Origin: a virus
Lineage: Duplodnaviria > Caudoviricetes
IMG/VR virus record: IMGVR_UViG_3300046318_000318
DNA: 64,000 nt
Strand: one strand, 5' to 3'
Below, one piece after another: positions 20,940 to 38,170 of this stretch. How positions within the stretch are numbered: position 1 is the stretch's first letter; each line of letters starts with the position of its first letter. Under the pieces are notes generated by a model. That model ran no database searches, had not been told where the DNA came from, and was given only the letters and a program-made list of their open reading frames with translations. Made by a program: the position numbers and the translations under genes.

Positions 20940-20944
20940 ATTAT

Positions 20945-21830
20945 CTTTAATAACACTTTATTCAAATGTTATTAAAGATACCCAATATCACTATTGGGTC
21001 TTACCACTTATTACTCACGTAAGACAAAGCTCACATTTTCACATTAGATTCTATATTCTTTTACTCTTATAGACTTTACAGTCAGAGATATTCCTTTAAG
21101 AATCTTACGTGGGTTTAAAGTCTTTCTACCATATCGTGTTATTAGTACCAGGGGCTGACTATGCAATCTTAGGCTTTTCCTGGATTCAGTCATGCTACAA
21201 CTAATAACGCATCAGAGTAATTACTTCTGATATTTGACTTAGGTAATCTCCATTAGACTTATACCTTCTGTATTTAATCCGACCAGACTGCCTTTCGCAT
21301 GTATCTGGTTTTACTGTTTCCAGTAGTGAGCTAAACTCACATTTCGGTCAGATTGGTCCCAGAGTAACTCTGGACTTTGGAGATGGGCACCCACTCGTTA
21401 AAGTGTTTTACCGTCTTTCGATAACTTTTACGCTCATTGACATAGCATGTGGTTTAAACATCGCTTGTCTTGATGGACTACAAGTTATTTTTTCGGTGGC
21501 GTCTTGTTTATCTGTCTGCTTAATCGTTGTCGCTATTCCAAGGGCGAGTCCACCCATCCTGGCGAATGAGCTTCAATCTCTCACGACTATCCTATAAACT
21601 TTTAAGCTTTTCCATTATTTCAGACCTTACAGCTAACGTCTATATCAGGCGATTAATATAGACATATGCGTATCTGTTGTCATGGCGACAGATGTTCTCG
21701 ATGATTGTTCAAGAACATCGATATTCCTCACATGAGTACATTACTGAAACTCATGCAACCTTTTACAAGGACGATATACTTAGGAACGCTAAGTATAATT
21801 AACTGTCTTTCACTCTCGTGTGGAGCTATT
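20945..21830 (-). ncRNA. candidate large structured ncRNA (~0.9 kb) upstream of the tRNAs
   Basis: No credible ORF; dense perfect hairpins and multi-branch helices, several GNRA loops. Confidence 0.5.
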
Positions 21831-21876
21831 GAACTTAAAGCCACCAGTATCAAGACTAATCCTGGTTTCAATGATA

Positions 21877-22074
21877 TTATTTATATACCGCGCAAGGCGG
21901 TCGAGGTTTTTCTGGTGGGGATTTGATAGACCCTGTCGTTGCAGCAACACGTTTAGCCCTAGCAGACTGCAATCGTTTAAGGCTGTTGTCTATCTCATCC
22001 AGTTTGAACAACGACACAAGGTCGCACGCTCTCCAGAAATAACCCCATGAGAAATCATTCCACATGGCGATCAC
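21877..22074 (-). CDS. hypothetical protein
   Basis: 65-aa ORF in operon orientation. Confidence 0.45.
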   Translation of the reverse strand: MIAMWNDFSWGYFWRACDLVSLFKLDEIDNSLKRLQSARAKRVAATTGSIKSPPEKPRPPCAVYK

Positions 22075-22078
22075 TTTC

Positions 22079-27665: not shown

Positions 27666-28181
27666 TCACTTCTTACCACCGGTGATAAGCCTTGGGGACC
27701 AACCCTTCTTAATCACAGTCTCTTCTGAAACTTTAAATTCTTCAGGTTCTTTTTCTTCAATGGCATGTTCATTAACAGTGGTGTGTTCGGTAAGCTTATC
27801 CTTACCTGACTTCTCAGCTATTACTATCTTTGTAAGCTGGATGAAGAATGATGTAAAAGGATAGGGGATAACCGCATCTACATCTACATCAATAATAGCA
27901 TCTATTTCGTCCAGAGAAATCATGATGTTTTCAGGCTTGCCGTTGAACCTGGCCTGAAAACTCAGATAATGTTCATAAACACCAAAATTGTGCACAGACT
28001 CAGGTGATAGATTAAGAGTGATAACCCCTTCTTGACTTTTATGCTGCTCCAGGAAACCTGCATGGGTCTTAGGGCGATACCAGATATGTACACGATGACC
28101 TTGCTCAGTCAACAAAGTGTAGCTGGATGCAAAGGCATCTGTTACAAGTTTTTTAACGTCAAGTTGAATTTGAACATTCAT
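27666..28181 (-). CDS. SspB-like ClpXP adaptor
   Basis: ITLNLSPESVHNF...LSFQARFNGKPENIMISLDEI, acidic tail. Confidence 0.75.
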   Translation of the reverse strand: MNVQIQLDVKKLVTDAFASSYTLLTEQGHRVHIWYRPKTHAGFLEQHKSQEGVITLNLSPESVHNFGVYEHYLSFQARFNGKPENIMISLDEIDAIIDVDVDAVIPYPFTSFFIQLTKIVIAEKSGKDKLTEHTTVNEHAIEEKEPEEFKVSEETVIKKGWSPRLITGGKK

Positions 28182-28374
28182 GATTTTGTTCCTTAGTTGG
28201 AAGTTGGTGATTGTGAGGGTTGAAGATGATGCCGTCGGTACGTTTAAGCCAGGCTACAGCAACATAGTTGACTTGAGGATAACCCCTTTGTGTGATGCCT
28301 GTAATAGTACCAGGTCCTACAGGACTATCTTCTATGGTATCGCCTATCTCAAGATATTCAGGGTTCATAGTCAC
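28159..28374 (-). CDS. hypothetical protein
   Basis: 71 aa, coupled. Confidence 0.6.
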   Translation of the reverse strand: MTMNPEYLEIGDTIEDSPVGPGTITGITQRGYPQVNYVAVAWLKRTDGIIFNPHNHQLPTKEQNHECSNST

Positions 28375-29204
28375 ACTACTTTCATGACACGTTGAAAAAT
28401 GTAAAACTTTCTATCTGGAAACTTAATGCCCAAACGTTGAGCCTCAGTAAAAGCTTTCTTATATGTCAGATGAGTTGAGGGTTTTTCAGAAAATTGATAA
28501 CCGTTAAAATCTTCTGTTTTTTCTTTCAGCTTACTGGATATGACAAATATTCGTTTTCTTTTAAGACTGTTGGTATGGTCAAGAACCATATCTACTGTTT
28601 TACAGAAATTTAAATAGTGCTCATTAAGCTTGGTATTTTTGTAGTGTGTTCCAGTTTCGTTAAGCTGGATACCGTTTTCATCTAATAGATGCTGAAGGTT
28701 ATTTTCAGCGTAGATGCTAAACATCTGTTGTTTAGTACCGGGCATGATACTTTCCTTTTTTGACGAAGTTTGATTTTTACATTCTTTTTCTGGCAGATGT
28801 ACACCATTTATGTACCAGTATTTTTCACCGCTGCGATTTTCGATAGCAGGTCCATCAATACGGTGAAGCATGCCGTGTCGATACCATAATTTATTACCAT
28901 CTATGCGCTCAACAGCTGATCCGTCTTCCCGATGACGCTCACCGTTCAGCCACCATTCACTATGACCATTCCGGCGATCGATAGCAGGACCATCTATTCG
29001 ATGACGCTTCCCGTTCAGCCACCATTCTCTATCGCCGTTAGCGTACTCAACAGCAGGATCATCTAGACGATGTAGTATGTTGTCCAGATACCAAGCTTTA
29101 TACCCATCCAAACGCTCAACGGTTGGACCATCTTCACGATGAAGCTTATCGTCTTTATACCAAACTACACTTCCATTTTCTTTTATGACTTTTCCATTTA
29201 ACAT
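28371..29204 (-). CDS. protein with N-terminal HRxDGPA repeats fused to an unrelated C-terminus
   Basis: Tandem ~23-aa WY...LHRxDGPAVE repeats. Confidence 0.8.
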   Translation of the reverse strand: MLNGKVIKENGSVVWYKDDKLHREDGPTVERLDGYKAWYLDNILHRLDDPAVEYANGDREWWLNGKRHRIDGPAIDRRNGHSEWWLNGERHREDGSAVERIDGNKLWYRHGMLHRIDGPAIENRSGEKYWYINGVHLPEKECKNQTSSKKESIMPGTKQQMFSIYAENNLQHLLDENGIQLNETGTHYKNTKLNEHYLNFCKTVDMVLDHTNSLKRKRIFVISSKLKEKTEDFNGYQFSEKPSTHLTYKKAFTEAQRLGIKFPDRKFYIFQRVMKVV

Positions 29205-29250
29205 GATACATTCTTTCTTTAATGGGACAGAATTGTCAGATAAAGTTTAA
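29202..29250 (-). promoter_or_regulatory. conserved promoter-leader element
   Basis: TTTAAACTTTATCTGACAATTCTGTCCCATTAAAGAAAGAATGTATC-ATG. Confidence 0.65.
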
Positions 29251-29323
29251 ATGATTATAAATAACTAGGCAGCCTATTTGCTCTGTTCATAAAAAAAACA
29301 GGACCCGAAGATCCTGTTTTATA

Positions 29324-30313
29324 TTAAGGTAAGAAATCACACTTCATCAACCTCAGAAACTTTTCAGTATCTGAGATAGGAAATGAGAACCCTGAAGCAT
29401 TTTTATGCCCACCGCCGCCGTTGTGTTTAGCTATAGCTGATACATCCACATCTCCAGCAGCGTTACTACGAAGAGAAACTATCACCAGATCTCTACCAGG
29501 GCTGACGATGAAGAAAGCACAAAACGCATACTCATCTTTAACAAGATCAGCCACGTTTGATACATACTTCATATCACAGTTCATAAGGGCTGCTTTACCC
29601 AACTTGGTTTCCACAGGAGTAATAAGTCCTTTCAGACGCTCACATTCTGCTTCGTAGAAGTCAAGCTCCAATGCTGCTTTGGTCCAGACGGCTTTAAATT
29701 CACTATCTGACATTTCAAAGATCTTGTCCCAAGCTTCAAATGTCATCTCAGCATTCAAAACTTTGTTCCAGATCTTTGTACCGTCCAATTTGAAAAGCCA
29801 CAGATCACGATCTTCTACAGCCAACGCAGCATGGCGCAGTCTAGCAGGAACATCGATATCTTCAGAATCAATAGTTTCCAAAGCCAGACCAGCGCCTGAA
29901 CGATTCTGGATAAGTTTAGTGAAGAACTTAACATCCTTCTCACAACAAATCAGGTCAGGTCTCTGCTCAAGACAAAGATGATTGACTGTCTTTAGTTTCT
30001 CTACGTCAGAAGCACCGTAGATATCAATCGCTGTCTTGTGGTGATCAAGAAACGCCAAACACTTGAGGTTTGGGGATTCGTTGACAATCTTAGCCAGATC
30101 ATCTTTGCTGTAAGAATAGTCGATAATCCAGAACTCTTCTGCGTCTGTAGACAAAGCCTCGTCACCATACTGCACTGGTGTGTACAGTACATCTAGACCA
30201 TCCAACTCAGCTTCCTGGCTTTTAAACCAATGTCTGAGTAGATAAGCAGACATAAAACCATCGGTACAGTTCTTGTGGTACCGAACTTCAACTTTCATTT
30301 TTTCAGACATCAT
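29324..30313 (-). CDS. DHH/DHHA1-family phosphoesterase
   Basis: YHKNCTDG, IIDYS, FLDHH, EDRDLW, SLRS, GGGGHKNASG. Confidence 0.88.
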   Translation of the reverse strand: MMSEKMKVEVRYHKNCTDGFMSAYLLRHWFKSQEAELDGLDVLYTPVQYGDEALSTDAEEFWIIDYSYSKDDLAKIVNESPNLKCLAFLDHHKTAIDIYGASDVEKLKTVNHLCLEQRPDLICCEKDVKFFTKLIQNRSGAGLALETIDSEDIDVPARLRHAALAVEDRDLWLFKLDGTKIWNKVLNAEMTFEAWDKIFEMSDSEFKAVWTKAALELDFYEAECERLKGLITPVETKLGKAALMNCDMKYVSNVADLVKDEYAFCAFFIVSPGRDLVIVSLRSNAAGDVDVSAIAKHNGGGGHKNASGFSFPISDTEKFLRLMKCDFLP

Positions 30314-30462
30314 GATACTTTCTTAAGTAAAACAAAAACAATTGAAATGACACAACATGCGCAAAAGAACCCGAGACTCAGGTATTGCATAATGGAGAGT
30401 TCCCTACTCCACTTATCCAAATCCTCTTGTTCTTTCTTTGAAAGATTGCGGTAATCGTTCAT
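30310..30462 (-). CDS. 50-aa single-TM protein (below the ORF-track cut-off)
   Basis: MNDYRNLSKKEQ...FFCACCVISIVFVLLKKVS*; ATGA overlaps at both ends. Confidence 0.65.
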   Translation of the reverse strand: MNDYRNLSKKEQEDLDKWSRELSIMQYLSLGFFCACCVISIVFVLLKKVS

Positions 30463-30872
30463 TGGCTGAAGTCCGTTCTTGATTTGATCATGTTCTTTGC
30501 TGTATCATCATCTGCATTATACAGACGGTCGCAAAAGCACTTATCTATTTCATTCACGACTTTTTCCAATTTCACCCACTGATAAAAAGCTTGACCGTAG
30601 CGCAAAGTTTTACTATCGTGTCTGAAATCCTGAATGACAGAATTGCTAAACGTTAGGCGATCTGTATCACAAACAAAATCATCTTTGAGTTCAGAGAAAC
30701 GTTCGTGAGACAAACAGCGGAAATGTACATAGCGATTACCATTTCCGCTATCGTACCAAGCGGTAGTGCGAAGATGAATCAGATTTTCCACATCGTTACA
30801 AACAGGACACAACACTTCTTCATTCACAGTCGCCATTTGACCTGTGAAAATTTCTCTTACAAATTCTTTCAT
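30459..30872 (-). CDS. Zn-ribbon-containing hypothetical protein
   Basis: CPVC; leader AAGGAAGTATC-ATG. Confidence 0.7.
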   Translation of the reverse strand: MKEFVREIFTGQMATVNEEVLCPVCNDVENLIHLRTTAWYDSGNGNRYVHFRCLSHERFSELKDDFVCDTDRLTFSNSVIQDFRHDSKTLRYGQAFYQWVKLEKVVNEIDKCFCDRLYNADDDTAKNMIKSRTDFSQ

Positions 30873-30887
30873 GATACTTCCTTTTGC

Positions 30888-31241
30888 TTAAACAGATTTA
30901 TAACGAAGCAGATCCCAAATCTCTTCATCGGTGAGTATCTCATACTCTACCGGTGTGTTGATCTGAGCTTTGATCTTAGCATTTGATGTCCAGCAATTCT
31001 CTCGCTTGTGTTCATGGACACCAGGTCGTTGAAACTCAACAGCTGATTTGAGTTTCTTTTCATCGTAAATGATGGCTATCACACAGGACTTGCCGTGCGA
31101 TATGTGTTTACCCGGACCTTTCTTCGACTTGCCAGAAATTCGATCAGCCCAACAAGCTGCCTCGTTGATATCCCTGGTTACAGTACCTGGCACAAAACCA
31201 GGTTTCAAGAAAGATCGCAAGGTACCTTTATAGAATACCAT
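30888..31241 (-). CDS. hypothetical protein (start uncertain)
   Basis: MVFYKGT...; longer start begins in a terminator hairpin. Confidence 0.55.
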   Translation of the reverse strand: MVFYKGTLRSFLKPGFVPGTVTRDINEAACWADRISGKSKKGPGKHISHGKSCVIAIIYDEKKLKSAVEFQRPGVHEHKRENCWTSNAKIKAQINTPVEYEILTDEEIWDLLRYKSV

Positions 31242-31382
31242 TTCATAATAACCCAATAAGTTATTGGCTTTTGGGTTTGGTTTACTTGATGAAATACCAA
31301 GTCTCAAATAAAGTAGATGTTGCCAAAAAAATTTACATAGCCTATACACCCGAGCCATATAGGCCGGGTGTATAGCTGTGTT

Positions 31383-31550
31383 TCATTTAACGTTTATATA
31401 GACCAATAGGAATAAAACCATGACTATTCCTACAGCCAGTACAAATGACTGACCATCAAGAACTATGTCTTTATATTGATCTTCTTCAGTTTCATAAGCA
31501 CTCAAGGTACTTATACCAGAAGCTTCATCTTTTTCATTGTTAAAAAACAT
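31383..31550 (-). CDS. 55-aa protein with C-terminal TM
   Basis: MFFNNEKDEASG...FVLAVGIVMVLFLLVYINVK*. Confidence 0.6.
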   Translation of the reverse strand: MFFNNEKDEASGISTLSAYETEEDQYKDIVLDGQSFVLAVGIVMVLFLLVYINVK

Positions 31551-31552
31551 GA

Positions 31553-31747
31553 TTATATTTCTGTTGATTTAACAATGATAGATAAGCCATCTGGATGATA
31601 GCTGGAAGTGCTCTTACAAGCCATGTTGATAGATTCTTCTATAGATTCAAACAGAGGATGATTCTGTCTAAATCTAAGCTGTACGTGTTTCTCTTTACCT
31701 TCGTCATTGACGATAGTTGTATTAAAGACTATTTCGTTACCGATCAT
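31553..31747 (-). CDS. hypothetical protein
   Basis: 64 aa, coupled. Confidence 0.6.
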   Translation of the reverse strand: MIGNEIVFNTTIVNDEGKEKHVQLRFRQNHPLFESIEESINMACKSTSSYHPDGLSIIVKSTEI

Positions 31748-31968
31748 GATTTATCAAACCTCTTTTTTATCTCTCTAAAAACTACCATCGATAACACCAG
31801 AGCTGAAAATATATTCAGTAAAGGAGCTAAAGACACCACTATCAAAATACCACCTGTGGTAGCACTGAAGTCTACACCTCTCTCATCATAAAAAAGATAA
31901 GCGCAGATAGCTGTTAGAACAAAACCAAAGATTACAAAAGTCAGATGTGTAGTTATAAGAAATTCCAT
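31744..31968 (-). CDS. small two-TM membrane protein
   Basis: Start moved to MEFLITT; two hydrophobic helices. Confidence 0.6.
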   Translation of the reverse strand: MEFLITTHLTFVIFGFVLTAICAYLFYDERGVDFSATTGGILIVVSLAPLLNIFSALVLSMVVFREIKKRFDKS

Positions 31969-32101
31969 TTTAATACCGTTGTTGTAGTTACAGTCAAATA
32001 ATTTCGGGTAAAAAAATAAGGGCGGGACAGTTTGTATCTGCTTGTGACAACCGAGTCTGGGTAGACTGATCACTTGCATCAACAAACTGTCCCTAATTAA
32101 G

Positions 32102-32201
32102 AACAAAGCCAACATGAATCGAACATGTTAAGTAAATATAACCTTCTACGCAGAATAGCACTGCTCCAGTTAATTTACTTGCCTCTACCAGACGGCTTTG
32201 T
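32102..32201 (-). ncRNA. tRNA-like element without a normal anticodon arm
   Basis: 9-bp AACAAAGCC/GGCTTTGTT stem, TGGTAGAG D-loop-like segment, T arm AACATG-TTCGATT-CATGTT, 12-bp anticodon-position stem with 26-nt loop, no CCA. Confidence 0.6.
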
Positions 32202-33366
32202 TTCTCTATTTATTACAAGATAGAGAAGGATGTGTCAGTCACCGCATCCAAGATATTTATAACACCGACTCGTGTTACCGGTTTGTCCAAACCTGGTGAA
32301 AGGATAAGCTACATCTGTTTAACTCAATCGCCACATACCCAGTAGTTCAGGTAAGGGTTAAGATGATTGTGCTATAATAAGCACAGAGCCTTAATACGAC
32401 AGTGTTTTAATTCATCAACATAACACTGAAGATACCCGAGTTCTCAATAGAGAATCTCGCTGTATTTTTGATGCCTAAGCACTCTAAAGCTATCTCTCCT
32501 AAAATAAGAGATAGCTTATAGGCTGCTCTCTGGGGTGATCAATCCCAAAGTTTACAACTTCCCAAAGATATCATTCATACAGTTCCCGACCAAGGGTAGT
32601 CTATATAAGAGATATCCATAGGGCGTACGATTTGGCGGTTGGTTAGACCACCTTCTACTCCTTAACAAAAAGTTAAAGGCAGGCTATTATCGTGAGCGCA
32701 CCTCTTTCTATTACACACTTGTGATGTGTTTCGTCCTTGTGTTTAAAGCCTTAGGACTCATCAGATAGATAAGGCTCAAATGAAGTTTATGTGGCCTCAT
32801 TCTTTTATAAAGGGGTTTTCCCATAGCAGACTAAATGACTTCTGTCTATCTAATCTGCTACAGGCAAACACCTGAGTGCTAACTTGTTATCATATCACAA
32901 AGGTAGATAACCACAACCTATTACAATAAAGACGTGTGAATCGCCTGCTTGCTTTGGCAAGAACAGCCCTCGAAGCTAGAGCCACATCAGGTCTGAACAA
33001 TCGTCAGAACACATGATCCCAGGGGATTTAAAAAGCATCAAACACAGTTCTGGGAAACTATGTGCTAGATCGACAGTTTATATTTTCCTTGTTTTATCAA
33101 CTAAGTGAAAATACCGATCACTTTATACTGCTCCATCGTGCGTGTATTTTGTTATCACGCTAACGTCCCGATAGTACGTTTACCTAAGTTACCAATGGTC
33201 AATACCTGCACCCTAGCCTTACGCCCGCAAGCGATCTATTAACTTAACTCCGTAATCCGCAATGATATACGCACATTAAGAAATGTTTACACACTAGATT
33301 TACTAAGCAGCGACTTGTTAGTTACCATTGATACGATCAAGTCTACTCCGGTTTACTTAGGTTAAA
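32202..33366 (-). ncRNA. long ORF-free structured region containing a hammerhead
   Basis: No ORF of 60 aa or more in ~1.15 kb; many hairpins. Confidence 0.55.
32707..32769 (-). ncRNA. type I hammerhead ribozyme, predicted cleavage after GUA (between 32712 and 32711)
   Basis: UCUAU-CUGAUGA-GUCC..GGAC-GAAA-CACA..UGUG-UA|AUAGA: all core nucleotides and three helices present. Confidence 0.88.
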
Positions 33367-33425
33367 TGGTACCAGGAACGGGACTCGAACCCGTAAGACC
33401 CTTGCGGAAGTATTAAGTTTTTAAA
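33367..33425 (-). pseudogene. 3' half of a broken tRNA-Leu
   Basis: TTTAAAA remnant loop, long variable arm with GCAA loop, ACGGG-TTCGAGT-CCCGT, TCCTGGT-A-CCA. Confidence 0.75.
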
Positions 33426-33434
33426 GTACATGGG

Positions 33435-33743
33435 TGGCCCGCTCCGGAATCGAACCGGAACGCCCCTTACGAAAGCGTCAGATTTTAAGTCTGATCTCTA
33501 CCACTGCAGTTTTCACTGCCACTTTAGTGTGTTTGTGGTCTGGACTATCCCTTCAACTACATCCTAAATGTTTAGCTGGGCGATTATAGTCTCTGCACGT
33601 CTTTCTATATTTCTATAGAAATTTCGCTCAGGATTGGCATCAGCAATTAACTGTTAAGCTTTCCCTGAATTTACGCCATTTTACTACATTATTTCTAATG
33701 TAGGACACATCAAATATATGTCTACCTATTTCATCAGCGGGCC
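33435..33743 (-). tRNA. tRNA-Leu(UAA) interrupted in the D arm at 25/26; exons 33718-33743 and 33435-33495; CCA not encoded
   Basis: GGCCCGC/GCGGGCC-A, GGTAGACAT|A, TCAGA-CTTAAAA-TCTGA, long variable arm, TCCGG-TTCGATT-CCGGA. Confidence 0.9.
33496..33717 (-). ncRNA. group I intron (IC3-like, 222 nt) in the tRNA-Leu D arm
   Basis: AAATTCAGGGAAA, AATCCTGAGC, GTGCAGAGACTA, GGATAGTCC; P1 GACAU/GUGUC, P10 AUCAGA/UUUGAU; ends in G. Confidence 0.92.
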
Positions 33744-33754
33744 ACCCATGTACT

Positions 33755-34255
33755 CTATTTCTTTTCTAATCTGTAGTATTCTTTCTTTATTTCAGTTCTT
33801 TCGATGATCACGCCGCCATTTTGAACTTTGGCGCCATAAGAACCTGAACATTTTTTACTACAAAAAGGACCTGCTCTATTAGAAACATAATTAGTTATCT
33901 GATTTTTACTAGGGGTAAATATTTCCTCACACCCAGCACACTTTACAGGATCCACCTTTACTCGTTTAGCGTCTTCACTTGCGTGAACAGGCAGTGTTTT
34001 AACAATAAGGTTATTTAGAGAATTATTGGTGAAATTTCTATCGTGATGGTCAACAGTCTCACCGTCTTTTAACTTTTGTTTTAATTCAATTTCTTTTAAA
34101 GCCTTGGGGTAAGAGATGGTTTTGGTCTTACCTTTAGTCCCCTTAGCAGCTTTTGAATTATTTAAAACAATATGCTGTCGACCATCACTTCTGTGATAAG
34201 GACCTAAGACGGATGTATATTCTGGATATAATCCAAGAAGTATTTGCTTATCCAT
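33755..34255 (-). CDS. free-standing HNH endonuclease with C-terminal Cys4 Zn finger
   Basis: ETVDHHDRNFTNNSLNNL; CAGC...FCSKKC. Confidence 0.85.
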   Translation of the reverse strand: MDKQILLGLYPEYTSVLGPYHRSDGRQHIVLNNSKAAKGTKGKTKTISYPKALKEIELKQKLKDGETVDHHDRNFTNNSLNNLIVKTLPVHASEDAKRVKVDPVKCAGCEEIFTPSKNQITNYVSNRAGPFCSKKCSGSYGAKVQNGGVIIERTEIKKEYYRLEKK

Positions 34256-34260
34256 GTTTT

Positions 34261-34286
34261 CCCTTTACCGATTTGGGCATCCTGGT
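34261..34286 (-). pseudogene. 5' half (positions 1-25) of the broken tRNA-Leu
   Basis: ACCAGGA-TG-CCC-AAATCGGTAAA-GGG; ACCAGGA pairs perfectly with TCCTGGT of the 3' half. Confidence 0.78.
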
Positions 34287-34350
34287 AATATCTATATCTC
34301 ACGTTGCAGTCAGTTAGAATATTTATCACTAAATGATTCTAGAAAAGGAT

Positions 34351-34425
34351 TGGTGCCGGATGTCTGATTTGAACAGACGACCTATCGCTTACAAGGCGAG
34401 TGCTCTACCCCTGAGCTAATCCGGC
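34351..34425 (-). tRNA. tRNA-Thr(UGU), no intron
   Basis: GCCGGAT/ATCCGGC-A-CCA, loop CT-TGT-AA, TTCAAAT T loop. Confidence 0.93.
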
Positions 34426-34487
34426 TTACTCTCCGCATTCTATTACAAACACGAATAAAAAAATACCCTGTTTGACCAGGGGTATTT

Positions 34488-35036
34488 TCAATTGATACTA
34501 TCGCCATTAAAGAAATTAGCTATGTGGTTATAGTGTTCTGTGATCTTGAGATTAAACACAGGTACATTATACAAACATGCCAAATCTATAGCGATCTTAG
34601 TACCGCCAGTTCTTGTACTCGTAGTCCCTCTACCTATATAACCATCTCTGGTATAACAGATAACGAACTTACTAGGATGACTCAAATCATTCCCTAATAT
34701 CTGAAGTACATTTCTACCATAGAGCTTAAGAAGAGCTGGGGACAATTTATCCATGTAAGGACAAACGTTCTCCAGGATTCTGTAAGCTTCGTTTGGTATG
34801 TGATATTGATAATCTAAATCGTTGAAGCCTTTCCAGGGTAGATAGATTTCACAATTCAGTTTATTTCTAACACCTTGGTAGAACGCTGAGTCTGCTCCTT
34901 CAGCACCACCTGAACGCAAGATGTATTGCTTCTGCTCTAGAAGAGCAGCTACTTTAGTCATAGCGTCCAGATAGAACTGAGGAGTATCTCTGTTACCTAT
35001 ACCTGTGTAGGTACGGTTACTGAGTAGATCAATCAT
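34488..35036 (-). CDS. SLOG/DprA-like Rossmann-fold protein
   Basis: YTGIGNR, LRSGGAEGAD, GGTKIAI. Confidence 0.7.
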   Translation of the reverse strand: MIDLLSNRTYTGIGNRDTPQFYLDAMTKVAALLEQKQYILRSGGAEGADSAFYQGVRNKLNCEIYLPWKGFNDLDYQYHIPNEAYRILENVCPYMDKLSPALLKLYGRNVLQILGNDLSHPSKFVICYTRDGYIGRGTTSTRTGGTKIAIDLACLYNVPVFNLKITEHYNHIANFFNGDSIN

Positions 35037-35688
35037 GACCTTCGATCTTCATCAGGATACTGGCTTGAACCATGTCGATAGAACCGTGACAATCTATCTT
35101 GATGATTTTACCATAGTAGTTATCTGGAAGTTCATTACACAGCTTAGTCACTTTAGACATGAGAGTGCTATTAGCTTCATGGACATCTTGCTTCTTGTCT
35201 GTGTAATCACGCTGACCTTTTTGAAGTACTCGTTCAGCAGCTACTTCTTCTGACAGAGTAAGTACAAAGGTGATGTCAGCTGGTCTGAGTGCTGAGTGCA
35301 CATACTCAGAATATTCAGTATACTTTTTCATGTATATAGCATCTTCAGGGTGCTCAGCCAAAGCTTGTTGATACAGAATGTTAGACAAGATGTACCTGTC
35401 TAATACCACGTAATCATTTTCTAACAGAGCCTGTTCGATTACTTTTTTGTGAGCTGCGCGATCAGCTGTGTAAAGATCGGAGATTTCTGTTCTGGACAGA
35501 TCTTTACCTTCTCCGTTAAGGTAAGCTGCGATGCACTTACCTGTATCAGATTGATATTGAGGGTAACCAGACAGAAAAACCTTCAAGCCAAGCTTAGACA
35601 TATTCTCAGCCAAAAGCTTAGCTTGAGTAGCTTTACCCACGCCATCGATACCTTCGATAGCGATCAACTTCCCGATCTTACTGCTCAT
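35029..35688 (-). CDS. tmk: thymidylate kinase
   Basis: IAIEGIDGVGKATQ P-loop, VLDRY, RPAD; start MSSKIG. Confidence 0.92.
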   Translation of the reverse strand: MSSKIGKLIAIEGIDGVGKATQAKLLAENMSKLGLKVFLSGYPQYQSDTGKCIAAYLNGEGKDLSRTEISDLYTADRAAHKKVIEQALLENDYVVLDRYILSNILYQQALAEHPEDAIYMKKYTEYSEYVHSALRPADITFVLTLSEEVAAERVLQKGQRDYTDKKQDVHEANSTLMSKVTKLCNELPDNYYGKIIKIDCHGSIDMVQASILMKIEGHD

Positions 35689-36289
35689 TGATTTGTCCTT
35701 TAACAAAGTTGCGTGCTATGAATTCATCTTCGTGTTCTGAAATAGCAGAGAGAAGAATATTCCTCAGAAGCATAGGGCTTTCTGCTGTATAGACCTTTTC
35801 AACCATATCAAAGAACCCACTTGTGGAAAGCTTATGATGTAACTGTTCAGAATTTGTAAACTCTGGATTTTCCCAGTTATTATCCACAACTTTCTTTTTG
35901 TACTCATTACAGACCAAGAAGTTATAACGTTGGTAAGGTGACAGGTCCATGATGGGGAGTATACCTGATTTGGTATGATTTTCCCATGAGTTCATGTTGA
36001 CCCACTTAGTGACTGAGAAAGTCACTTTGGTCTCACCAGTGATCCAGTCAAAGACATGATACAAAGGTGCGCCTTTGTGGTCTGTATGAACATGAGTCAC
36101 GAAACCAACTAAGGGATCTTCCCACGCATCAGACTGATGATACACAGGCATGTAAAGCATATCCATAGCCAGAGTAGCAGCTACAATATCCTTACGGGAC
36201 TGAGTCTCAGTTCGTTCATGCATGACCCCATATTGCTTCCAATCAGCAAGCAGACGATCGAACGATGATTTCAGCATTATTTTGATCAT
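35678..36289 (-). CDS. hypothetical protein
   Basis: 203 aa. Confidence 0.7.
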   Translation of the reverse strand: MIKIMLKSSFDRLLADWKQYGVMHERTETQSRKDIVAATLAMDMLYMPVYHQSDAWEDPLVGFVTHVHTDHKGAPLYHVFDWITGETKVTFSVTKWVNMNSWENHTKSGILPIMDLSPYQRYNFLVCNEYKKKVVDNNWENPEFTNSEQLHHKLSTSGFFDMVEKVYTAESPMLLRNILLSAISEHEDEFIARNFVKGQINEQ

Positions 36290-36290
36290 G

Positions 36291-36695
36291 TTACTTTCCT
36301 TTTTTGATGATAGCCACGGTACGATCCATGACCAGGGTTTTGCTGTTGTTTGTGTGATAAAACAAACGCCAGCGAGTCGCTAACACTTTATTGTCCTTCA
36401 TAACACGCATGTGTTTATCCGTAAAAGCTTTAGCAGGTTCTTCTGAAACCAGTTCAAGTCTCTTACTTTTATCAGAACGTGTCTGATTGAAGTTACTTAA
36501 AACCATGACGTCATATGTTCCATGCTGCCACAGCAATTCGTGAAACATACTTTCCATAGTTATCAACTCAGTCCTGAATTCTTCCTCAGACTGAAAGACT
36601 TCAGCGATGTCCTCAAAATCCATTAAGGAGATGGTTTTGACAAAAGGGCTGTCAACCATCTCTTCTAACAGTTTAGTTTTCTCTGCGATACCCAT
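36291..36695 (-). CDS. hypothetical protein
   Basis: Start moved to MGIAEK behind the conserved leader AGGAAAGTATC and promoter-like ACTTTACTTGAC. Confidence 0.7.
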   Translation of the reverse strand: MGIAEKTKLLEEMVDSPFVKTISLMDFEDIAEVFQSEEEFRTELITMESMFHELLWQHGTYDVMVLSNFNQTRSDKSKRLELVSEEPAKAFTDKHMRVMKDNKVLATRWRLFYHTNNSKTLVMDRTVAIIKKGK

Positions 36696-36807
36696 GATAC
36701 TTTCCTTTTTTAAAGTTGAAATACTGTCAAGTAAAGTAAATAGGATCAAAAAATTATACACAGGCTGAAAAAAAATCCCCTCAGCTTTTGGCCTTGGGGA
36801 TTCTCTG

Positions 36808-37062
36808 TCATGCCGTTGCCTTGATAGGCTCGACGTCATGGAAATACGATACTTCCATGATGATATCGCACGCGGCGAACTGACCCTTGATAGAAGGATC
36901 AGCCTTGAGACTTTCTTCAAAGTCTTTGATTAAGAGAGCGTCGACCCTCTTATCCTTAGACAATGAAGAACACATGCGCGCTATCTTTCGCGCTCGCTGG
37001 ACCAGCTCAGTAGCCAAACGAGCCAGCTCAATATTGAGCTGTTGCGAAGAAAGTTCTTTCAT
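36808..37062 (-). CDS. small monocistronic protein
   Basis: MKELSSQQ..., AAGGAG SD, promoter repeat upstream, terminator downstream. Confidence 0.7.
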   Translation of the reverse strand: MKELSSQQLNIELARLATELVQRARKIARMCSSLSKDKRVDALLIKDFEESLKADPSIKGQFAACDIIMEVSYFHDVEPIKATA

Positions 37063-37135
37063 GTTGTCTCCTTGATGTTTTAAACCACCTGACATCTACA
37101 GGTTTTCCCAAGATCGGGAACGAACTAGCGATATA

Positions 37136-37171
37136 GCTCAAGTTAAGTATATGTCATTGAAATCTTTTACA
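37136..37171 (-). promoter_or_regulatory. 36-bp promoter repeat
   Basis: GCTCAAGTTAAGTATATGTCATTGAAATCTTTTACA; 34 of 36 nt identical to 47117-47152. Confidence 0.65.
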
Positions 37172-37248
37172 AAGATAGTCGGGTTTAAAAGATACACAGA
37201 GCCTTACGGCTCTGTGTATCTTAAGCTCTCAGACTCTCACGAGTCAGA

Positions 37249-37821
37249 TTACCACTGCTCAGCCAGCATCTGGGGAGCAACAGGCAGACCGTTATACAAC
37301 AGGTTGCCGGTGTCGTCGCTCAACAGATCCAGCACAGCGATGTTAGCGTGTGCATGGCGCTTAGCCACGGCATCGTCAATGTCAGCCACCAAAGAGGTAG
37401 GCTTATTAGCGATAGAAGCCCACTCCAGGACCACATCCAGCGACTCATGTTCGCTGATCTTAGCCCAGGCCATGCCAACTGGATCATACACGTAAGTGGC
37501 AGCGCCGATCAACACGGTGGTGTCAGCAGTAGCGTCCAACACCAAAGCCATCGTAGCGATGCTAGGTGCCAGAGCGTCACGAGCGGTGATGTCTGCAACG
37601 ACCTTCAGTGAAGAAGCAGCAGCCAGACCAGTGGTGATCTTACCGTCGACCATTGTCTCCAGTTCAGCAAACGTAGGTACGTGCTTAGCAGCGGTACCGG
37701 TGCTGTCGGAAACATAGATGTTAACGTCGTCGGTACGAACGGCGTCAGCAACCAAATACAGAGTAGAAGCTTCCAGTACGCCTGGCAGAGCTGTTACTTT
37801 ACTAATTTTCAATTGTGCCAT
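37249..37821 (-). CDS. virion/tail-associated protein, paralog of 39016-39588
   Basis: MAQLKISKVTALP..TLYL; host-like codons. Confidence 0.7.
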   Translation of the reverse strand: MAQLKISKVTALPGVLEASTLYLVADAVRTDDVNIYVSDSTGTAAKHVPTFAELETMVDGKITTGLAAASSLKVVADITARDALAPSIATMALVLDATADTTVLIGAATYVYDPVGMAWAKISEHESLDVVLEWASIANKPTSLVADIDDAVAKRHAHANIAVLDLLSDDTGNLLYNGLPVAPQMLAEQW

Positions 37822-37942
37822 GTTAGGCTCCTATGAAGTTAAAGAGGAAATGAATACCTGAACTAGGTCGAGATCTTGATACTATTATCTATAGAACTCT
37901 TTTAAGTAACCATGTTCCATATCATTGAGATAAGAATATTCC

Positions 37943-38170
37943 TCAAAAGCAATAAGCTTTAGGTTTAGACTTCTGTAACAATGTTAAGGAGTTAGGTGCG
38001 CCTATATACTTTACTGGTATTCTAACAGAACCTGGACCGCCTATCATAGACCCAGCTGCGATAACAGATTGACTGGGTGAGAAAGGCTGTAGGTTATTGG
38101 TAAGGGTAGAGAATTTTCCAGATGTTTGGTTTACGCTACCAGTTGTTTCTAAAAAGGATACAAAGGCCAT
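37943..38170 (-). CDS. small tail-cluster protein
   Basis: 75 aa in operon. Confidence 0.6.
   Translation of the reverse strand: MAFVSFLETTGSVNQTSGKFSTLTNNLQPFSPSQSVIAAGSMIGGPGSVRIPVKYIGAPNSLTLLQKSKPKAYCF

Follow-up and report, generated by a model that had tools for sequence, protein, structure and literature searches.

A new large phage RNA with a built-in hammerhead ribozyme and a tRNA mimic is encoded in a 64,000-nucleotide (nt) stretch of viral DNA (Caudoviricetes; IMG/VR record IMGVR_UViG_3300046318_000318). We call this stretch the window, and all positions refer to it unless another contig is named. The locus is real, conserved, transcribed and non-coding, and it forms the non-coding tail (33366-32010, minus strand) of a tRNA operon that has a terminator at either boundary. 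In the direction of transcription it consists of a large structured upstream RNA of 655 nt (RNA-1; 32712-33366, -), whose final ~100 nt are a hammerhead module, a multi-hairpin structured RNA of 509 nt (RNA-2; 32203-32711, -), whose 5' end is the 5'-OH predicted from the hammerhead cut, and a tRNA-like 3' domain (32102-32202, -). A reading made from the sequence alone had pictured the region as a processing line running from a tRNA end through a long RNA, a hammerhead and a second long RNA to a tRNA mimic, and this order was recovered on the minus strand and found to be conserved in relatives. The lack of coding capacity, the strand, the conservation, the constraint, the excess folding, the intact ribozyme motif and the presence in RNA libraries were all observed directly. 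Our preferred interpretation, to which we assign a probability of roughly 0.55, is that RNA-1 and RNA-2 are stable RNAs that act in trans after being released by the processing model proposed below.

Conservation, folding and transcription of the stretch

The longest gap free of open reading frames (ORFs) in the window runs from 32116 to 33754, with no ORF of at least 60 amino acids (aa) on either strand, and the longest ORF within 32100-33366 encodes 45 aa, in line with the ~1.25 kb of ORF-free DNA claimed earlier. Reassigning a single stop codon, with each tried in turn, opened no convincing frame in this stretch, and the genes surrounding it are on the minus strand. Since terminators stand on both sides of the operon and the tRNAs share its orientation, the ORF-free stretch makes up the non-coding body of a tRNA operon that runs from terminator to terminator. 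The upstream boundary is set by a hairpin that resembles a terminator, carries a U run (34466-34481, -) and closes an upstream 182-aa gene; tRNA-Thr(UGU) (34351-34425, -) is the first gene, and an HNH gene followed by an intron-bearing tRNA-Leu-like gene separates it from the tRNA 3' half that adjoins RNA-1. The sole intron match in Rfam, a group I intron at 33519-33727, is upstream of the ORF-free RNA and outside the stretch. At the other end, an intrinsic terminator (32010-32093, -) was identified by inspection as a long hairpin (32093-32024), GCCCUUA and then seven U (32016-32010); the terminator scan omits it because only loops of 3-8 nt were counted. A 123-aa ORF of the public annotation (31744-32115, -) overlaps the terminator hairpin and the tail of the tRNA mimic; the real gene most likely begins at an internal ATG (31968) and encodes a membrane protein of 74 aa, which is how some relatives are annotated.

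Relatives of the locus were reached through this spurious 123-aa ORF, through the downstream 156-aa and DHH-family proteins and, for an IMG/VR genome, through the hammerhead pattern. Seven distinct versions of the RNA were obtained, namely the window, L001, L013 (the same as L017, L048 and L049), L014, L015, L016 and L047, with 92-97% identity to the window, and the unchanged window sequence was present in six more JGI contigs (L041-L046). All versions come from freshwater metagenomes. When the window was compared with five relatives, and the RNA with the codon positions of 4-11 flanking genes, the fraction of differing sites was 0.03-0.10 in the RNA (0.03-0.054 in RNA-1 alone), 0.08-0.21 at third codon positions, 0.04-0.085 at first and 0.02-0.06 at second positions. 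Third codon positions thus diverged 2-4 times faster than the RNA in each of the five comparisons, and the RNA came close to the positions that determine amino acids. Insertions and deletions in the RNA were 1, 3 and 5 nt long, several of them in hairpin tips, and their sizes and placement, together with the slow divergence, form the pattern of a non-coding RNA.

Folding was strand-specific. With shuffles as reference, the minimum free energy (MFE) of RNA-1 was -191.3 kcal/mol (z -3.66) on the minus strand versus -144.8 kcal/mol (z -0.87) on the plus strand; RNA-2 reached z -5.13, and local 150-nt windows across RNA-2 and the tRNA mimic z -4 to -6.6. RNAalifold consensus energies for the two halves of the seven-variant alignment were -178 and -213 kcal/mol against -146±6 and -138±6 after column shuffling, and two-sided pair changes numbered 4 and 7 where 0.5 and 2.0 were expected from the same shuffles. 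The RNA-2 consensus comprises 150 pairs, 6 of which changed on both sides. Among pairs predicted in the window with a probability of at least 0.9, pairing is preserved in 27 variant states and lost in 16, versus 89 and 108 when the partners were shifted by 1-2 nt (Fisher p 0.04) and 11 and 24 on the plus strand (p 0.007). One-sided changes of the G-U type in the 3' half fit the minus strand in 22 cases and the plus strand in 4. A whole-length MFE fold of the window sequence gave just 47 kept against 42 broken states and was judged too unreliable for long-range pairs.

Compensation was clearest in individual hairpins. Double changes were found in hairpin 32278-32259 (A-U to G-C at 32275-32262 and C-G to U-A at 32272-32265), in hairpin 32459-32437 (G-C to U-A at 32456-32440) and in hairpin 32385-32368 (U-A to C-G at 32383-32370), and hairpin 33063-33042 holds one pair that appears as A-U, G-U or G-C (33059-33046) plus four wobble changes. 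Covariation is modest because the seven variants are all close and come from one lineage. We regard these compensated hairpins and the status of the RNA as highly folded on the minus strand as supported. The four helices quoted by the sequence-only reading are all complementary, but only AAGCTATC/GATAGCTT belongs to the consensus fold, its stem being retained and its tip replaced in three relatives; the other three fall outside that fold and have few substitutions, which point neither way.

The doubt that the region might not be transcribed is answered by the RNA-library contigs of four studies in which the stretch is present. In six RNA-library runs, 23-41% of the sampled words were present, and contigs from four metatranscriptome runs of four studies were placed on 28000-38000. 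They cover 32169-33400 in pieces (for example 32169-32458, 32506-32694, 32741-33164 and 32848-33400), and no contig in any of the four runs lies on the flanking genes at 30672-32007 and 34680-36015, which argues against DNA carry-over. In one run, with contigs identical to the window, the remainder of the operon (33577-34400) is covered as well, and two other runs show another strain with L016-like letters. One contig bridges the junction of tRNA and RNA-1, with 34 nt across, which fits co-transcription of the two. Contigs also extend ~30 nt into the tRNA mimic, so the mimic may be the 3' domain of RNA-2 instead of a tag removed during processing.

A possible internal RNA 5' end is located at 33164 (-), where contigs of two studies stop and enter the read-1 adapter, and one contig ends likewise at 32435. 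These adapter-linked stops are a weak hint of defined RNA ends and, provided that the libraries follow the common stranded design, also of minus-strand RNA. At both sites the RNA may be processed internally or may strongly stop reverse transcription. The listed contigs leave 32695-32740, including the cut site, uncovered, with scattered ends nearby; as contigs cannot show RNA ends, we do not count this as cleavage.

Hammerhead, tRNA-like domain and tRNA junction

The hammerhead that had been noticed near the middle of the stretch is of type I (32707-32777, -), with all core features, three stems and a likely pseudoknot. Stem I is open and has 5 bp (32769-32765 with 32711-32707); the core CUGAUGA (32764-32758) supplies C3-U4-G5-A6-N7-G8-A9; stem II (32757-32754 with 32736-32733; 4-5 bp) is closed by a 17-nt loop II (32753-32737); GAA (32732-32730) supplies G12-A13-A14; and stem III (32729-32725 with 32717-32713; 5-6 bp) is closed by a 7-nt loop. 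The cleavage nucleotide H17 is A32712, which places the predicted cut at A32712|A32711. The A15.1-U16.1 pair is A32729-U32713, and the pairs closing the core are G32757-C32733 and A32711-U32765. Perreault et al. (2011, PMC3088659) accepted hammerheads by the core, an H17 that is not G and closing pairs next to the core, and the present motif has every one of these. The hammerhead descriptor matched once in the window on both strands together and in 0 of 200 dinucleotide shuffles. In the seven variants the module varies at only two positions, both of them distal bases of loop II.

A strand GAGCCUUA (32777-32770, -) in front of stem I is complementary to the start of loop II, whose first eight bases are UAAGGCUU (32753-32746), and the two likely form an 8-bp pseudoknot that does not overlap stems I and II; a helix of at least 8 bp arose in 1.9% of composition-matched shuffles. 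Pseudoknots between stem I and stem II have been reported for ~40% of natural hammerheads and shown to be required for fast cleavage (PMC3088659). An 11-bp pairing (32816-32806 with 32710-32700) that would compete with stem I was discounted, as such helices are expected by chance in 1.3 kb. In five cultured phages that encode chimallin, the Rfam hammerhead model, which is insensitive to hammerheads of this kind, gave one sub-threshold match, in a helicase gene, which we took as false. In unrelated freshwater contigs we observed near-identical pairs of type I hammerheads 384-457 nt apart (L019:6633-7049, L026:2592-3081, L029:4545-5034 and L038:260-676). These pairs could release unit-length RNAs with ligatable ends, and ARAGORN called no tRNA gene in the four loci.

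Downstream of RNA-2, the RNAalifold consensus (32206-32098) is a cloverleaf-like structure of four arms. It has an acceptor-like stem of 9-12 bp, a 4-bp D-like arm with GG in the loop, a long interrupted arm where a tRNA has its anticodon arm, without an anticodon loop, and a T arm with a 6-bp stem and a 7-nt loop, UUCGAUU or UUCAAUU, that satisfies UUCRANN. Of 14 changed states among its 35 consensus pairs, 13 keep pairing (11 one-sided and 2 two-sided) and 1 breaks it; the variation in the T loop is G to A at a purine position, and the long arm was rebuilt by clustered two-sided changes in L013, L016 and L047. Neither ARAGORN nor the Rfam tRNA model calls the domain, its acceptor and T stack of 15 bp exceeds the usual 12, and the CCA is missing. 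As the earlier reading had it, 32202-32102 is a tRNA mimic, not a tRNA. A covariance model of the mimic found no second copy in the window or in the loci of the relatives. Separately, L014 has a further, 100% identical copy of 42 nt of the long arm (32169-32128) in the same orientation (L014:409-450). This copy lies at the 3' end of the gene that immediately precedes thymidylate kinase, spans the stop codon of that gene and the spacer to the next start, and is missing from the corresponding place in the window. A patch left by recombination or a protein-binding site common to both places may account for it.

The 5' border of the RNA is fixed by the tRNA ahead of it. As had been read from the sequence, a tRNA 3' half with an ACCA terminus (33367-33425, -), ending ...TCCTGGTACCA (also ...UGGUACCA), directly precedes RNA-1 and sets its 5' end, and relatives carry tRNA-Leu(UAA) at the same spot. 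In every relative the first RNA base is the one directly after the CCA of this tRNA. The gene itself is intact in L013-L016 (L013:6492-6580), interrupted in L001 (L001:5009-5594) by a ~480-nt anticodon-loop intron (33.5 bits, under the Rfam cut-off) and broken up in the window (33367-34286) by a cassette of HNH gene and intron-tRNA, with homology between strains resuming within the T arm. With at least three states of tRNA-Leu(UAA) and a constant border of CCA and RNA, the front tRNA is therefore exchangeable and the junction fixed.

A second tRNA has entered the RNA itself. At the position corresponding to 32814/32815 (-), L014 carries a complete tRNA-Asn(GUU) gene with CCA (L014:2524-2599) bordered by an 8-nt direct repeat, CCCTTTAT / CCCTTTCT, and L015 has the same insertion (L015:2983-3271) with its 3' half swapped for ~130 nt of unrelated sequence. 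The repeat resembles a target-site duplication, hinting at mobile tRNA genes. Because the insertion site is between the upstream RNA and the hammerhead, it acts as a tolerant linker.

Proposed maturation and competing explanations

We propose that a single minus-strand transcript would start just past the terminator at 34466, end at the terminator at 32093-32010 and contain tRNA-Thr, tRNA-Leu, the ~655-nt RNA, the hammerhead, the ~510-nt RNA and the tRNA-like domain. Excision of the tRNA by the tRNA-processing machinery would free the 5' end of RNA-1 at 33366. The pseudoknot-stabilised hammerhead would fold once stem I is complete and cut itself at 32712|32711, leaving a 2',3'-cyclic phosphate on RNA-1 and a 5'-OH on RNA-2, and the tRNA-like domain and terminator hairpin would be retained on RNA-2 or trimmed there. 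The predicted products of 655 nt (33366-32712) and 509 nt (32711-32203) agree with the ~650 and ~510 nt estimated earlier. Both would accumulate as stable, highly folded RNAs active in trans, as analogues, not homologues, of GOLLD and ROOL, the giant phage RNAs of tRNA islands, for which action in trans has been proposed. In L014, processing of the inserted tRNA-Asn would free the upstream RNA ~100 nt earlier, which suggests that the conserved task of the ribozyme is to set the 5' end of RNA-2, the last 100 nt of RNA-1 serving as a processing module. The actual cleavage, the exact ends, the action in trans and any molecular target are what we infer from these features.

Several observations weigh against this interpretation. 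Local 150-nt windows in RNA-1 fold no better than shuffles, and its predicted fold is a long-range one; its long-range helices are without support, and each of ~30 predicted pairs is disrupted by at least one variant. For these reasons, and because all relatives are close, we treat the predicted global fold as tentative. The variants belong to a single phage lineage, and the comparison with third codon positions could be skewed by mosaic recombination among strains. The Rfam hammerhead model (RF00163) scores the motif at 16.1 bits against a cut-off of 34 (E-value 3.8), which we attribute to loops of 17 and 7 nt that are longer than those of the model, and cleavage between A32712 and A32711 is predicted from the motif. 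The RNA-library runs were chosen for containing the stretch, and their contigs show neither the strand, nor true ends, nor a ranking of gene abundance. More distant relatives did not turn up in phage, IMG/VR, JGI or GTDB searches: blastn of 31900-33800 against 50,697 phage records gave no match, three RNA patterns and two protein anchors scanned against IMG/VR returned one relative or none, a loop-tolerant hammerhead pattern run on JGI metagenomes returned only the already known relative and 23 unrelated type I hammerheads, and a scan of GTDB genomes yielded no relative of the RNA. The gene-free gap is absent in distant relatives of the flanking 156-aa protein (L005-L012), which leaves no synteny to use. 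The RNA may thus be a lineage-specific oddity.

The constant place of the RNA directly after tRNA-Leu and between terminators, and the gain and loss of tRNA genes within and ahead of it, would also suit a scaffold that acts only in cis, aiding expression, processing or stability of the co-transcribed tRNAs and terminating the operon, with the fragments as by-products; the hammerhead and the tRNA-like end are both elements of a processing type. Nevertheless, 1.3 kb constrained like first and second codon positions is excessive for a trailer, other tRNA operons manage without such trailers, and pieces of the RNA are at least as visible in the RNA libraries as the tRNA part. We therefore regard a purely cis-acting role as doubtful.

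Another explanation takes the tRNA-like 3' domain as the functional core and the rest as its carrier, the domain serving as a decoy or adaptor that binds a tRNA-recognising factor such as a host anticodon nuclease, a CCA-adding or modification enzyme, or an export route from the phage nucleus. The cloverleaf-like fold with its canonical T loop speaks for this, as do the purine change in the T loop and the two-sided changes in the long arm, which keep the fold, and a phage with many intron-protected tRNA genes and a chimallin homologue offers a fitting setting. However, the mimic lacks the anticodon loop and CCA, carries a 15-bp stack and escapes tRNA finders and the tRNA model, and 1.1 kb of other constrained RNA would be left unexplained. 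This explanation appears unlikely to us.

Less likely still is a non-functional remnant (tRNA genes in decay, leftover intron sequence or the scar of a recombination event), alike among strains only through their recent divergence. Rearrangements of tRNAs and introns are concentrated in this neighbourhood, the relatives are all close, and part of the tRNA-like arm was copied elsewhere in L014. On the other hand, debris is hard to reconcile with the slow divergence of the RNA in every comparison, the strand-specific excess of folding and an intact, invariant hammerhead, and tRNA and intron models had no match inside the RNA at E-values up to 10.

Hammerhead cleavage yields 2',3'-cyclic phosphate and 5'-OH ends, a chemistry that suits RtcB-type ligases and had led the sequence-only reading to suggest that the products are joined into circles. 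From established enzyme chemistry, a single hammerhead would leave an upstream product with a 5'-phosphate, from the trailer side of the excised tRNA, and a 2',3'-cyclic phosphate, and a downstream product with a 5'-OH and a 3'-OH, the latter from termination or RNase P, so that neither fragment has an end pair that RtcB could join, and we consider such a factory of circular RNA highly improbable; no back-joined contigs were seen among the RNA contigs, which cannot show the absence of circles.

Relation to known RNAs and to the host phage

In Rfam 15, searched at E-values up to 10 with the window (31900-34600) and L001 (4500-7300), no family matched within the RNA except the sub-threshold hammerhead, in accordance with the earlier view of the region as a candidate for an undescribed RNA system. 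GOLLD, ROOL, OLE, raiA, introns, RNase P and tmRNA went undetected by Rfam in the RNA, and neither RF00028 nor the group II models matched inside the stretch.

GOLLD, one of the closest parallels by description, is a phage-encoded, highly folded and abundant RNA of several hundred to more than 800 nt whose function is unknown; it is found beside or downstream of tRNA genes, and the two parts of its body are joined by a variable linker in which tRNA genes are sometimes present (bioRxiv 10.1101/2024.12.08.627333). The present RNA resembles it in phage origin, size class, tRNA-adjacent place, two-part body and a tRNA in the linker (here the tRNA-Asn of L014), but does not match RF01998, the conserved 3' domain of GOLLD, at E-values up to 10. 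GOLLD, like ROOL, forms defined multimers, its own being a homo-oligomeric nanocage. ROOL is a large ornate RNA of phages and prophages, encoded near tRNA islands and possibly co-transcribed with tRNAs (bioRxiv 10.1101/2024.12.08.627333; PMC5737381). The likeness consists in a large phage RNA adjoining tRNA islands, but RF03087 does not match, and the present unit is about twice as long and split by a ribozyme. A hammerhead and a tRNA-like 3' domain are mentioned for neither GOLLD nor ROOL in these two papers.

With the natural pseudoknotted hammerheads of bacteria and phages (PMC3088659), the present one agrees in its core, its three stems, its closing pairs and the likely pseudoknot of stem I and loop II. 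Phage hammerheads have been described in a setting of long transcripts that are cut into pieces (PMC3088659). The present hammerhead differs in that it separates two large non-coding RNAs in a tRNA operon, not mRNAs, and in that its long loops bring it below the Rfam threshold.

Other comparisons are by description only. Small stable RNAs other than tRNAs, of unknown function, are co-transcribed and co-processed with tRNAs in the tRNA clusters of phages T4 and T5 (species 1 and 2 in T4); these are ~120-140 nt long and have no ribozyme. The present RNA is like them in its probable co-transcription with tRNAs and unlike them in size and in its ribozyme. A tRNA-shaped module is also found at the end of or inside larger non-coding RNAs in MALAT1/mascRNA and in the bacterial Y RNA YrlA. 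Those are eukaryotic or Ro-associated bacterial systems, whereas the present RNA matches no family and its RNA contigs enter the module instead of stopping at its 5' edge.

Very large structured RNAs beyond the ribosome, introns and RNase P are rare, and GOLLD and ROOL in phages are still without a known function. A third, unrelated RNA in the niche beside phage tRNA genes would point to a general function of RNA connected with tRNA islands. Three landmarks make this RNA easier to test, namely an exact predicted cut, a tRNA-like domain that suggests a class of partners, and halves that can be produced separately.

The window also encodes a chimallin-family protein, the shell protein of the phage nucleus (6584-8452, -; Pfam PF25677, E-value 1e-34), for which the closest cultured homologue is that of Burkholderia phage FLC9 (34% identity), and a divergent family B DNA polymerase (11047-13170, -). 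Together these two genes indicate that the source is an uncultured relative of nucleus-forming jumbo phages; related contigs reach 214 kb. With a chimallin homologue in its phage, the locus bears on how RNA matures in phages that wall off transcription from the cytoplasm. A bolder proposal, which we put forward only tentatively and think improbable, is that the RNA represents an undescribed class of bipartite giant RNAs in nucleus-forming jumbo phages. Their ends would be set by RNA-only devices (a tRNA on one flank, a hammerhead with a pseudoknot and a 3' domain shaped like a tRNA) that work where host RNases may be excluded, and the products would form a higher-order RNA particle or a tRNA-like decoy in a conflict over tRNAs and translation.

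Two further features of the window were recorded. Its second large ORF-free region (20943-22078) shares no sequence with the ORF-free RNA stretch. In one RNA run, a contig over 37307-37810, within a 190-aa gene (37249-37821), had a depth of ~99 compared with ~106 for the best-covered piece of the RNA, and this gene may be a very highly expressed phage gene.

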